A DNA stretch of 62,500 nt, the filler included, from Globobulimina sp. (taxonomy: Eukaryota): the NCBI GenBank assembly GCA_003354225.1. It is 16 parts of 16 records of this genome, joined end to end, with 100 filler letters (N's around TTAATTAATTAA, not from the genome) between each part and the next. Parts side by side here need not be neighbours in the genome. Positions count along the whole stretch, not along the records: positions 39,144 to 42,954 come from PIVH01002056.1; 15 more parts are not named here. The stretch is one strand, 5' to 3'. Shown piece after piece: positions 39,144 to 43,054 of the stretch. The notes beneath the pieces were generated by a model that saw only the letters and a program-made list of their open reading frames with translations, did no database searches and was not told where the DNA came from. The position numbers and the translations under genes were made by a program. The number at the start of each line of letters is the position of its first letter. Position 1 is the first letter of the stretch.

Positions 39144-41496
39144 CTTGATGTAGGTCATCCTGTATCGCGTACGCGATTCCATAAAATAAGTCCGATGCTA
39201 TTTTGTGACAATAAATAGGAGCATTTTTAAGCCCCATTAATACCACATTTGGCAGCAATACTCCTCCTTTTACGCGTATTCCGCAATATCGCTTGGATTT
39301 TTGTGCTAATAACATGTGGTAGAACCACTTTTTAATATCCGTTTGATTGGATAGCATGGCGTTGGCTGTGGCATCGTGCAATTCGTCAATCGTTAAATTA
39401 TCATATATATATGGATAAGTATTATCATTTAATGCCTTCAAATCGCATACAGCTCTTGACGCGACAATTAAATTATTCTTCTCATCCTTACCTAAGTATC
39501 TATGCACGACGAAAGCTGACGATGTATTTACTACGATATGATCCGGATTTGCCTGATCCTGCCATTCCATAATTCCTCTTTCCGTCCATGCTCCAACTTC
39601 CTTCTTTAAAATAGTGTCATCTGCTAACTGTAAATTATAGTTTTTGCCCAAACGGCATTTATTTTCATCCTTAATGTGCAGCGTAAGCGGTTTCACTTTG
39701 GATACACATCCAACGTCAAAATCCGATCTCGCGAAAACGTTTGATTTTTTCGCAATTTTTGACATATGAGCTGCTGCTTCATCCTTTTTAAACATTTTTG
39801 AGTCATATTCCGTATCTGATAATACTGCCGGATATGATATTTTCGTTCCATTAGTCAATTCTTGTGTTACTAATTCAAATGCTGCAGTATTCACACTTTG
39901 ATTTAATTTCATAATCTTATTATTTTCATTAACTTGCTCAATTTGAATAATATTCGAATCATCAATAACATGAATAAAGCTCTCCAGCGTCGGTTGGTTG
40001 TTGATAAAATCTCCATTTTTTAAACCTAAAACAAATTTGCTGGGACATTTTTCGACGTATTTTAATTCATTTTCATATTCTGTTAATTCAAATAAATCCA
40101 TACACGAAATGCTTATATTTGCTTCATTAATAGCTCGCATTACATCTGATTTCTTCGCGAATCTTGTATTTAATGTACAAACTTCATTGTTTTCAGCTAT
40201 TTTATAGATTCCTGGGTCGCCTTTATGACGATATTCGATTGTATCTAAGTATCCATCCACGTCTTCATCCTCAGGAATGATGTTAAATAATTGCTTCCTG
40301 GCGTGGTAATACAAACATTTCTTAATGTCATTCTTTGCGTACGTACCTAAACCTAAATACTTTCGCGAATCTCTGCCAATGATTAGTAAGTCTTTGGGGA
40401 CGCATTCTAAGCACCAAACTCGAATATACGTCTTCTTTGGATGTGATTTTCCAGTGGTTATGCTAAATTCCATTGTTTCTATCGGTACTTTTAGTTTGAT
40501 CGACGATGAATAAAATTGCTTTGTATTGCCTGCGTCAAATCCGCCGGCCGTAATAGTCGATTTTACTTTGTTGTCAATGAATTTTCGCAATAAATCCAAT
40601 ATTAATTTGCCACAAATAGTAATTGATGCTCCTTCATCGAGGAAGCCACGAATAACTATGTCTTCGTCAAATACTTTCAAATCACATGTATTCTTTTTTA
40701 TTTCTTCAATTGATTTCGATAATACTGACTCACAAATCGTAAATTCAGGCCCTGATTCATGTGTTAATAAATACTTATTCTCGCCATCAACTTTGTGAAT
40801 GGCATTCAACTCTTGTTTCTCTTCACTGATTTCTAACTCTGCAGTGTTATCAATGTCATTCTTTGCATCACGTTTAACGATAACATTCGTAACAACATTG
40901 CCATTGTTACGTATACGAATAAGTTTATGCTGCTCCGTAATGCGTATATTCTTTTTAAACGTTGCTGAATTATTCATTTTAAAATGCACCATAATAAACT
41001 TCGGAGATATTTTGTTTATAAATCCTCGGAACCATCGTTTTGTAGTATTTGAAAATACCTCGCAGGCATCGCCAGGTAACCAATAGTTCCATGCAGTAAT
41101 CCGTTCCGATTCGCCTTTTCGTTTCCAAATCCTTTTTATATTCAATTCATTCTCATCAATTCTGCTTAATTTATGAGGCTCAAATTGCTCCTTTTGAGAG
41201 TTACAAGCTTTTTTCTTAAACTTGTTGATAACATCACCTTTGCCGCTATGTTCACGGTAAGCTAATGGTGTATTATTATGTTCTGTATACAAATGATCAT
41301 CCGATAAATGTGTTTCTTGGATGTTAAATATAGCAGAAATTGGTTGTGGTTGCGGAAGGAGGCAGTTTTTGGACGTGCTAAGGTCAAGGAGGCAGTTTTT
41401 AGACGTGCTAAGGTCAAATAATCTTGAATCTACATTATCGCTCATTGGTGAACGACGGAGGCAGTTTACAGACGTACTGAGGTCTAATAAAAATCC
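39144..41496 (-). CDS. Pol in the -1 frame: Tudor-like insert, aspartic protease, reverse transcriptase; 3' partial
   Basis: Protease GFLDEGASITI...LLIIGRD. RT RAVCDLKALN, TIDEL, TDIKKWFYHM, MGLKNAP and IQDD. Confidence 0.85.
41356..41484. repeat. Three copies of a 30-bp repeat immediately 3' of the frameshift site (DLSTSKNCLL)
   Basis: 41356-41385 and 41386-41415 differ at one base. 41455-41484 matches the second copy at 25/30. Confidence 0.9.
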
Positions 41497-42845
41497 GATT
41501 CATTTTCTTCTTCCGTATCCGTGCTAATTTTATGATGTGTTTCTTGTTTTGAATCGACTGCAACTTCAACTGCATTAATTTTATGATATGGACGCTTTCC
41601 ATACTGATTATTACCTCGCGCTCCATACTGATTATTATCTCGTGCTCCGTTGCTGTCATTTGTGCGATTCGCAAATGATTCTTTTTCCTTGGCATTATGC
41701 CAAAATTTACATTTTAAACCATAGCGACACGTTCTTCCATGTTTACATTTTGGAATATACTCTTTTTTCTGTCGCTGATTGTCGTCTAATCCGCGCTTAT
41801 TACCTCTCATTCGATGATGTAATTGGTTTACTTCTGCACGCAATTGAACCAATTCATCATTTTGTCTTGCTTTAAATTCTTCGATGCTGCAAATTTCTAA
41901 AGATTTCAGCCCTAATACAGAATCTAAATAATTTTCCTGCTCAATAAATTTGTTTAATATACTCTTTAATTGCGGCATATTTATAGCCGGAGTTTCATGC
42001 AAATTCAGAGCTTTGTCAATAACTCTTACACGAACTGATTTGTTTAGTCCTTTAATACAATATTCAGCAGCTTCGTGACTGCTAATATTCTGATAAATAA
42101 ATCCATTTTCTGTCTGAACCCTAATCTCCAACGATAATTTGCGTAATAAATCATTAAATTTATCCCAATATAATTTCGTTGAATTTGTTCCTTGCGACAA
42201 TGATTGAATTGCTTTTTTATAATTAATAACTTGGTTCAATTTACCATATTTATCTTTCAATGCATTCCAAATCAATTTTAATTTATCAGCAACGTTATCG
42301 GCTGCATCGAAATTCAGATCATTTGATTGAATGAAATTATACGGCTCATCGCCTAATACTTTGCCGTTCATTATTAATTTTAATAAAACATTTCCATCGA
42401 TCTCATTATGCTCACAATATTTATTAATACGAATTTCAAAGTGATTGATATTTTCACTCTTCGCTCCATTGAATTTGAATGGGATATTTGTGATAGCCAA
42501 TTTGGCCAAAGCATTATTAATCTGCCTTTGCATATTATTATTATCTCTGGGGGCATTTCTACGTTCTGCTGGAGGCAGTTCGTCAATTTTTTCTTCATCT
42601 TCGTAATTCACTAAGAAACAATCAACGATAATGATTGCGTCTTGCATCAATTCTAAGAAATCCTCTGCATTATCAATAATAATTTTATCTGCATCGCCAT
42701 TCATCAAATATTCGAGACGAATAATTACGGCGAAATCAAATTTCTCAATGATTTGATCTTTAAATTGCTCAAAATCGCGTAATGATTCCGGCCGGAATCT
42801 AATTCTTCTGGTTTGATTTCCAGATTTTATTTTGAACCAACTCAT
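41484..42845 (-). CDS. Gag with PB1-like N-terminal domain, capsid-like region and CCCH zinc finger
   Basis: Capsid start PFKFNGAKSENINHF, LSQGTNSTKLYWDKF, and YCIKGLNKSVR. Finger CKHGRTCRYGLKCKFWH at 41697-41747. Confidence 0.8.
   Translation of the reverse strand: MSWFKIKSGNQTRRIRFRPESLRDFEQFKDQIIEKFDFAVIIRLEYLMNGDADKIIIDNAEDFLELMQDAIIIVDCFLVNYEDEEKIDELPPAERRNAPRDNNNMQRQINNALAKLAITNIPFKFNGAKSENINHFEIRINKYCEHNEIDGNVLLKLIMNGKVLGDEPYNFIQSNDLNFDAADNVADKLKLIWNALKDKYGKLNQVINYKKAIQSLSQGTNSTKLYWDKFNDLLRKLSLEIRVQTENGFIYQNISSHEAAEYCIKGLNKSVRVRVIDKALNLHETPAINMPQLKSILNKFIEQENYLDSVLGLKSLEICSIEEFKARQNDELVQLRAEVNQLHHRMRGNKRGLDDNQRQKKEYIPKCKHGRTCRYGLKCKFWHNAKEKESFANRTNDSNGARDNNQYGARGNNQYGKRPYHKINAVEVAVDSKQETHHKISTDTEEENESDFY
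41490..41496 (-). promoter_or_regulatory. Putative -1 ribosomal frameshift heptamer G_GAU_UUU at the gag-pol junction
   Basis: The pol frame opens only after TGA at 41500-41502 and gag stops at 41484-41486. The heptamer lies in this short overlap, in the correct register. Confidence 0.75.
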
Positions 42846-43054
42846 CGTTTCTGTATACTAATTAGTAATATACTTATTTCGACGTATTCGCTGAATTTAT
42901 GATATTCACGAATCTATTGGTAATCTTCTAGTCGGCTGTTGTTTTGATAGAGTCNNNNNNNNNNNNNNNNNNNNNNNNNNNNNNNNNNNNNNNNNNNNTT
43001 AATTAATTAANNNNNNNNNNNNNNNNNNNNNNNNNNNNNNNNNNNNNNNNNNNN

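Follow-up and report, generated by a model that had tools for sequence, protein, structure and literature searches.

A predicted PB1-type domain at the N-terminus of Gag in a Ty3/gypsy-type retrotransposon from a Globobulimina genome assembly

Organization of the element

The window, i.e., the whole stretch of DNA that was analyzed (62,500 nucleotides), consists of 16 unrelated contigs of approximately 3.8 kb chained by N spacers. One of these (PIVH01002056.1, 3.8 kb, positions 39144-42954) carries on its minus strand the gag gene and the 5' half of the pol gene of a Ty3/gypsy-type LTR retrotransposon (Table 1). The initial annotation had recognized a retrotransposon Gag here; its open reading frame, a capsid match, and a downstream pol are all present, and the peptides it quoted were located. 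The contig begins just 3' of the primer-binding site (PBS), and the LTR itself lies outside the window. The GC content of the contig is 0.34, similar to that of the neighboring contigs. The element is attributed to a rhizarian host on the assumption that this contig comes from the assembly's main organism. The genome searched was the assembly of 70 Mb in 48,370 contigs.

Table 1. Features of the element on the contig at 39144-42954 (positions in the window)
Feature	Position	Strand	Basis
5' leader	42846..42954	-	89% match to L002 564-700, located after LTR and PBS
gag ORF, 453 aa	41484..42845	-	ATG at 42845 to TAG stop at 41484-41486, open throughout; Pfam; structure model
PB1-fold domain, Gag aa 1-80, beta-beta-alpha-beta-beta-alpha-beta	42606..42845	-	Pfam 23.3 bits; AF2 pLDDT 88-95; structural matches
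Acidic/low-complexity linker, Gag aa 81-100, disordered, fast-evolving	42546..42605	-	pLDDT <50 at aa 85-97; pairwise identities
Two-lobed capsid domain (aa ~119-311), preceded by a conserved helix (aa 101-119)	41913..42545	-	Structural matches; weak Pfam Retrotrans_gag match
CCCH zinc finger C367-x5-C373-x5-C379-x3-H383, nucleocapsid position	41697..41747	-	Pfam CCCH families, below cut-off
Heptamer G GAU UUU, a putative -1 slippery site two codons ahead of gag stop	41490..41496	-	9/9 junctions
Possible small pseudoknot, directly 3' of slippery heptamer	41455-41485	-	Pairs invariant, without covariation
pol ORF, -1 frame, own ATG not needed, truncated within RT by contig end	39144..41496	-	Translation
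Possible small Tudor/Agenet/SH3-like domain ahead of protease (weak lead)	40900..41085	-	Pfam Agenet E 0.2; ESM Atlas Tudor/Agenet clusters 0.84-0.86
Aspartic protease, D-E-G at 40630-40638, IGRD motif downstream	40350..40660	-	Read from translation; no Pfam match
Reverse transcriptase, N-terminal part, to QDD active-site motif (39154-39162)	39144..39750	-	Translation; Pfam/structure matches of sister contigs

The pol frame overlaps the end of gag. The heptamer at the overlap, of a type that is a known slippery site, is followed by TA(T/C)TAG in all nine of the junctions found by a pattern search. In the possible pseudoknot behind it, five of seven pairs are invariant in eight sequences, and no pair covaries. 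The 30-nt unit on the 3' side of the slippery site, which contains the possible pseudoknot, recurs twice more in frame (the unit and its repeats lie at 41356-41415 and 41455-41484), and L008 and L010 are alike in this.

A Pfam scan of the pol of this contig gave no match, and the contig stops inside the reverse transcriptase (RT). Sister contigs extend pol through RT, RNase H (RH), and an HHCC integrase (IN), and it is through them that the order PR-RT-RH-IN is seen. Sister L014 matches RVT_1 (E 1.3e-4); L032, which is 87% identical over the common part, has RT_RNaseH at aa 644-742 and then Integrase_H2C2 at aa 1048-1097. Ty3-type RH families of Pfam are above cut-off in sister contigs. The best matches among solved structures are the RT of CaMV (E 8.7e-4, L032), the IN of foamy virus (0.003), and the RH of Ty3 (0.011). 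Pol is very divergent, as its best relatives in named families are 22-24% identical. A DIRS/Ngaro tyrosine-recombinase retrotransposon was excluded by the protease motif and by the HHCC/rve integrase in the family.

The motifs of the protease region are presumably those of an aspartic protease (D-E-G) and an IGRD motif. The catalytic motif is D-E-G rather than D-T/S-G; it is the same in L014 and in the outside relative P0070, and other relatives have D-P-G or D-G-G. The Tudor/Agenet/SH3-like domain tentatively placed ahead of the protease is also found in L009, L021, and L028, and is cut short in L010 and L033. It is not evident by eye in the outside pols P0067, P0069, and P0070. The start of Pol would be an unusual site for a fold resembling a chromatin reader.

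The ends of the element were traced in other contigs. In L002, the order is the end of pol, a polypurine tract (PPT), an LTR of ~115-117 bp, a PBS-like site starting with TGG, and gag. L044 (G000:C25510) is a 115-bp solo LTR between 5-bp direct repeats and is the single case of a target-site duplication (TSD). LTR, PPT, PBS-like site, and TSD are therefore found across these two loci. Both LTRs are present on no single contig. The solo LTR, in this one case, ends in TA...TA and not in TG...CA. Comparison of the PBS with the 3' ends of tRNAs gave 13 pattern matches against 11 in the control, and ARAGORN found no tRNA in 12 loci that could have indicated the primer. By its organization, the element is best read as an autonomous LTR retrotransposon of the Ty3/gypsy type and of a deep lineage.

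The region of Gag at aa 119-311 is a two-lobed retrotransposon capsid; its structural matches are the copia capsid (Z 11.3), the CA-CTD of PEG10 (10.0), dArc1 (9.2), and PNMA2 (8.1). The Pfam family Retrotrans_gag matches aa ~194-239 below cut-off (E 1.6e-4) and is above cut-off in the relatives P0005 and P0006. The zinc finger has the pattern C-x5-C-x5-C-x3-H and is, as first annotated, of the CCCH and not the CCHC kind. Pfam CCCH families match aa ~366-386 with E values of 0.003-1.6, all below cut-off, and the finger of Regnase-1 matches with E 0.021. Among 35 outside proteins listed, the CCCH pattern occurs in 15 and CCHC in five, with both in P0021 and P0024. By eye only, P0032 also has CCHC knuckles together with a CCCH-type finger. 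These three proteins are possible intermediates in a swap of the nucleocapsid. The patterns suggest that CCCH may first have been added beside CCHC and later replaced it; the resolution of the capsid tree does not suffice to fix that order.

The N-terminal domain of Gag

Pfam PB1 matches Gag aa 3-70 (query aa 1-82) with an E value of 6.5e-5 and a score of 23.3 bits, just below the cut-off of 23.6. It is the sole Pfam family with E <= 10 for aa 1-82. Sister copies score 12.6-21.1 bits, and the outside relative P0003, with 25.4 bits, is above the cut-off.

The basic face of the domain comprises K5, R13, R14, and R16, which is the type-B combination of a beta-1 Lys with basic residues in beta-2; the Lys and the RR pair initially annotated are thus present. 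The acidic face comprises D51, D53, and D62, plus D58, E61, E65, and D69. The register of the OPCA motif was set by alignment to the PB1 genes of the same genome and by the spacing in p62 and p40phox. In the available text, the OPCA acids are D69/D71/D73/E82 for p62 (PMC6978347) and D289/E291/D293/D302 for p40phox (PMC2121648), both spaced 0/+2/+4/+13. The corresponding positions in Gag are N49, D51, D53, and D62. Three of these are acidic, the first one holds Asn, and Ala replaces the conserved Gly of the motif. The canonical four-acid OPCA of type-A and type-AB domains is absent, and its initial description was overstated; an acidic face is still present. Of the two faces that had been reported, the basic one with its Lys and tandem Arg stands, and the acidic one is degenerate. 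Overall, acidic residues outnumber basic ones in the domain (11 K+R vs 15 D+E in the window copy), as in most relatives.

An AF2 model was calculated from an alignment of 35 Gag rows (A6), from which host PB1 rows were excluded. An earlier model (pLDDT 68.7) had host PB1 rows in its alignment, was therefore circular, and was discarded. In the Gag-only model, aa 1-80 form a confident beta-beta-alpha-beta-beta-alpha-beta fold. Beyond aa 80, the linker is disordered (85-97), followed by a helix (101-119) and an all-helical capsid region up to aa 311. The C-terminal part has a helix at 321-347, an ordered finger, and then another helix. When aa 1-81 were compared with 48,161 solved chains using VIA-align, the top eight rows were all PB1 domains, with Z from 9.0 down to 7.9. 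The best matches are NBR1 (Z 9.0, rmsd 2.6 over 79), MEKK3-MEK5 (8.8), Par6 (8.7), and p67phox (8.2); TFG (7.6) and p62 (6.8) are further PB1 matches. The PB1 fold proposed at first for aa 1-80 is thus recovered from Gag sequences alone. Foldseek gave the same ranking, but with E values of 0.009-0.1 only and none at E <= 0.001. A prediction of a complex of three copies of aa 1-84, made without an alignment, scored 0.04 against a mark of 0.32 and is uninformative either way.

The domain could instead be a generic ubiquitin-like beta-grasp that does not descend from PB1 and acts as a module for folding or solubility or as a degradation signal, with its PB1 motifs convergent. The best match of that kind (TBCE-UBL) has Z 7.5, i.e., 1.5 below NBR1; the Pfam PB1 score in the window is below cut-off, and the genome has more than 150 ubiquitin-domain loci. 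Against this are the exclusivity of PB1 in the Pfam search and its score above cut-off in P0003. A profile of 26 Gag N-termini also reaches four of a set of eight host PB1s at ~1e-6, and the two profiles match with an HH probability of 84%. In addition, K5, the RR pair, and the 0/+2/+4/+13 acid spacing sit at PB1 positions. We consider convergence very unlikely.

The domain matches seven loci in the genome, and it is linked to Gag in all seven, i.e., in every copy that reaches the N-terminus. Three of these copies are broken, by stops in L004 and L005 and by a frameshift in L007. R13-R14, R16, D51, D53, and D62 are kept in 7/7 copies, as is the Asn at the first OPCA position, and K5 is kept in the six copies that reach that position. 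For aa 1-80, dN/dS is 0.06-0.27 in 20/20 pairs (rough values, with dS near saturation); the region is under purifying selection. The linker (aa 81-100) is mostly near neutral, with identities of 20-65% in 20 of 21 pairs and 90% in the closest pair. Within the genome, the domain is more conserved than the capsid in 19/21 pairs (mean 74% vs 61%; the pairs are non-independent). Its dS is also lower than that of the capsid (about 1.1 vs 1.6, near saturation).

The assembly is fragmented, and there are inverted junctions inside the element family. In L034 (~916-940) and L027 (~706-721), LTR or PPT sequence is fused in inverted orientation to RT/RH sequence from inside the element; the fusion in L034 coincides with a short microhomology. 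These junctions could be amplification chimeras or autointegration products. Such features leave room for the reading that the fusion of PB1 and Gag is a one-off chimera, a misassembly, or a domesticated host gene. The seven diverged copies, however, share the fusion, which refutes a one-off chimera and agrees with the early expectation that sister copies carry the domain. A 655-nt contig from a public run also bridges PB1 and capsid with zero differences, although this run and the assembly may stem from one sample. Among the public runs listed for the sequence, none was of RNA. A domesticated gene is at odds with gag being followed by a slippery site and pol, and with a solo LTR that has a 5-bp duplication. 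We regard this group of explanations as hardly credible.

Relatives outside this genome were found by a profile search of 1.84 billion representative proteins, which gave 64 matches, some via the finger alone. Word-index protein searches with the Gag alignments gave one protein each. Of the 64 matches, 27 were aligned; 20 of these span the N-terminal domain and seven begin too late. The outside Gags are 21-37% identical to the window Gag. A leave-one-out profile scored above 100 shuffles for all 20 of the N-termini. Among eight further outside proteins with a long N-terminus, P0025 scored clearly (its N-terminus is that of P0022) and P0031 marginally; the profile did not detect the domain in P0026, P0027, P0032, P0046, P0055, and P0057. 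Of the 28 outside Gags with a long N-terminus, 22 therefore carry a homologous domain, and the six in which it was undetected suggest that it may be dispensable or strongly altered in some branches. Pfam PB1 reached E <= 1 in only two of 34 further relatives (among the best five families per protein). This rare detection may explain why the PB1-Gag architecture has possibly been overlooked.

Over 26 domains, the best-kept charges are R14 (22), R/K16 (22), D/E62 (22), and D/E65 (24), and K5 is Lys in 11. The outside copies lose most of the acidic loop, and the +4 Asp is listed in 0/20 of them. In 15/19 comparisons with outside Gags, the capsid is better conserved than the domain. P0031 and P0046 are in-frame Gag-Pol fusions, and that of P0031 includes RT and RNase H. 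The last residues of 12 outside Gags read D/N/G/H-F, the ending expected from a slippery site at the stop (judged from protein sequences only). Scans of metagenome contigs with the Gag alignment and with an RT-RH protein gave no confirmed relative. In the ESM Atlas, Gag aa 1-326 found gag clusters only (0.79-0.81) and no PB1-Gag cluster, structures being outside the scope of this search.

The genome also carries at least eight ordinary PB1 genes (L035-L042), most with the full D-D-E/D-x-D loop. The Gag domain is 12-23% identical to these, and in an unrooted tree (89 columns) the Gag PB1s and the eight host PB1s lie on opposite sides of a branch with 99/99 support. Recent capture from one of these eight genes is rejected on both results. 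Capture of PB1 is old, and the data are consistent with one old gain. Taken together, the computations leave us nearly certain of the PB1-type fold, the architecture, its presence across the lineage, and the purifying selection.

Two further observations concern ubiquitin in this genome. It has at least 154 matches to ubiquitin domains, many of them within long ORFs of several domains, which indicates a large beta-grasp expansion in the host. Five polyubiquitin loci (L071-L075) have one extra Ala at the monomer junction, with an apparent intron in every repeat just after the junction. Insertions of 1-2 residues at polyubiquitin junctions are described as a signature of Rhizaria in the available text of PMC3014934, and on this ground we call the host rhizarian. 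A first, strict search of the assembly for 18S rRNA gave no match.

Possible roles of the domain

The explanation that we favor as a whole, with a rough probability of 0.48, is an autonomous Ty3/gypsy-type element with a Gag in the order PB1, flexible linker, helix, capsid, and CCCH finger, in which the PB1 domain would be a spike that links Gag front to back. As far as the available parts of the reports on dArc (10.1101/697193) and PNMA2 (10.1101/2023.02.09.527862) describe, N-termini ahead of the capsid domain exit through the center of the capsomere as outer spikes. By analogy with these related capsids, the PB1 domain, in the position of the retroviral matrix, would be outside the particle as a spike, and five or six copies on flexible tethers would stand above each capsomere. 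Contacts between PB1 domains run front to back, and domains with both faces and tandem Arg form filaments, as in p62, NBR1, and TFG (PMC6978347, available text). The Gag domain may be a non-canonical type-AB PB1 that binds itself in this way, through contacts of the beta-2 arginines and K5 with D51/D53/D62 and other alpha-2 acids. Such binding could gather Gag in assembly foci, before the capsid closes or while it does so, and could cross-link neighboring spikes. RNA packaging, usually the task of a CCHC knuckle, would fall to the CCCH finger.

Self-association that concentrates Gag is the function that we rank first, at close to even odds, because the tandem Arg, R16, D51, D53, and D62 are kept in all genome copies, and because R14, R/K16, and the alpha-2 acids are best kept family-wide (22-24/26). 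The invariant Asn at the first OPCA position, the loss of the +4 Asp outside, and the frequency of Lys at position 5 show that a p62-type interface is not conserved throughout the lineage. D62 may be retained as a helix cap. The Z margin of 1.5 over other beta-grasp folds and the Foldseek E values also count against the favored explanation. A broader and more tentative version sees a PB1 captured clade-wide as the equivalent of matrix, which may serve either p62-like polymerizing spikes and retrosome condensates or subversion of the host PB1/selective-autophagy network, with the nucleocapsid swapped stepwise from CCHC to CCHC+CCCH to CCCH.

Second in the ranking is docking to the host. The basic face of Gag would bind the OPCA face of a host PB1 protein, such as a signaling scaffold, an NBR1/p62-like receptor, or a motor adaptor. 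This might serve particle traffic, access to a membrane compartment, or a decoy against autophagic clearance. Most of the host PB1 genes have the full acidic loop, and Gag combines an intact basic face with a degenerate OPCA loop. A spike, by the analogy above, would expose the domain to the cytosol. The domain is better conserved than the capsid within the genome but less so against outside Gags, as expected of a domain that tracks a host partner; the former result suits a fixed host partner at least equally well as it does self-binding. However, the acids of the opposite face are kept (D51, D53, and D62 as well as the alpha-2 acids), which would be superfluous for a pure type-B adaptor. The lower dS of the domain also leaves room for another source of the similarity, namely exchange of 5' ends between subfamilies. 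On balance, we consider docking unlikely.

RNA or membrane binding comes third and is distinctly unlikely. Here, an arginine patch on the beta-grasp would act as a matrix-like surface toward RNA or acidic membranes and not toward another PB1. The domain occupies the matrix position, and R14 and R/K16 are its best-kept front-face charges. By the title of PMC9014876, vault RNA binds K7 and R21 of the p62 PB1. These points are countered by the net acidic charge of the domain in the window and in most relatives, and by the CCCH finger and the basic nucleocapsid region, which already provide RNA binding.

The role of the region ahead of the capsid in non-enveloped LTR retrotransposons is poorly understood, as is how Gag meets itself in the cytoplasm to form foci. 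In this element, the place is taken by a domain whose rules of interaction are well known, and the question is addressable by a few point mutants. The element also provides a natural capsid whose surface domain is modular and foldable. If the clade-wide scaffold reading is true, this would be the first structural protein of a retroelement with a host signaling-polymer module.

Comparison with known systems

In the annotation, this was not known as a standard Gag architecture, and we found no published description of one. Titles and abstracts in the open literature yielded no retrotransposon with a PB1-Gag or a CCCH nucleocapsid; subscription papers, Repbase/GyDB, and supplements could hold one. 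The word "PB1" occurs zero times in PMC8321522, PMC2774666, PMC2577118, and 10.64898/2026.05.21.726589 (main text). In their available text, the surveys PMC2774666 and PMC2577118 have CCHC arrays only, and "CCCH" is absent as well. The former, from 2009, states in the part available that LTR elements of Rhizaria were unpublished as of then. The Gag architecture is real and conserved in an otherwise recognizable LTR retrotransposon, and is apparently undescribed. So, apparently, is the deeply diverged retrotransposon lineage in Rhizaria to which it belongs, with its unusual PB1, CCCH, and possibly Tudor modules.

The element resembles Ty3/gypsy (Metaviridae) and the dArc1/PEG10/PNMA2 capsids in its two-lobed capsid fold. 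With Ty3/gypsy, it shares PR-RT-RH-IN, a Ty3-type RNase H, an HHCC integrase, the LTR, PPT, PBS-like TGG, and TSD, and a -1 frameshift signal. It differs by the N-terminal PB1-fold domain, CCCH for CCHC, the very divergent pol, TA...TA ends (in one solo LTR), and a possible Tudor-like domain ahead of the protease. PNMA2 and Arc also have an extra N-terminal region before a Ty3-derived capsid, shown as an outer spike. These are domesticated host genes, and the available text does not name their spike regions as PB1.

Compared with the type-AB PB1s p62/SQSTM1, NBR1, and TFG, the Gag domain is alike in its fold, N-terminal position, beta-1 Lys, beta-2 tandem Arg, and acids at +2/+4/+13. It differs in having Asn as the first OPCA residue and Ala for Gly, in an identity of 9-20%, and in its fusion to a capsid. 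Most outside Gag relatives are without the acidic loop and half are without the Lys. The MUSTANG-B proteins of angiosperms (MUG7/MUG8) likewise have a PB1 domain N-terminal to a transposon-derived protein, and in that context PB1 is said to be "usually not associated with TEs" (PMC8616336, available text). MUSTANG-B genes, however, are domesticated MULE DNA-transposase genes, whereas the PB1 domain described here belongs to the Gag of a retroelement that has multiple copies and an intact pol.
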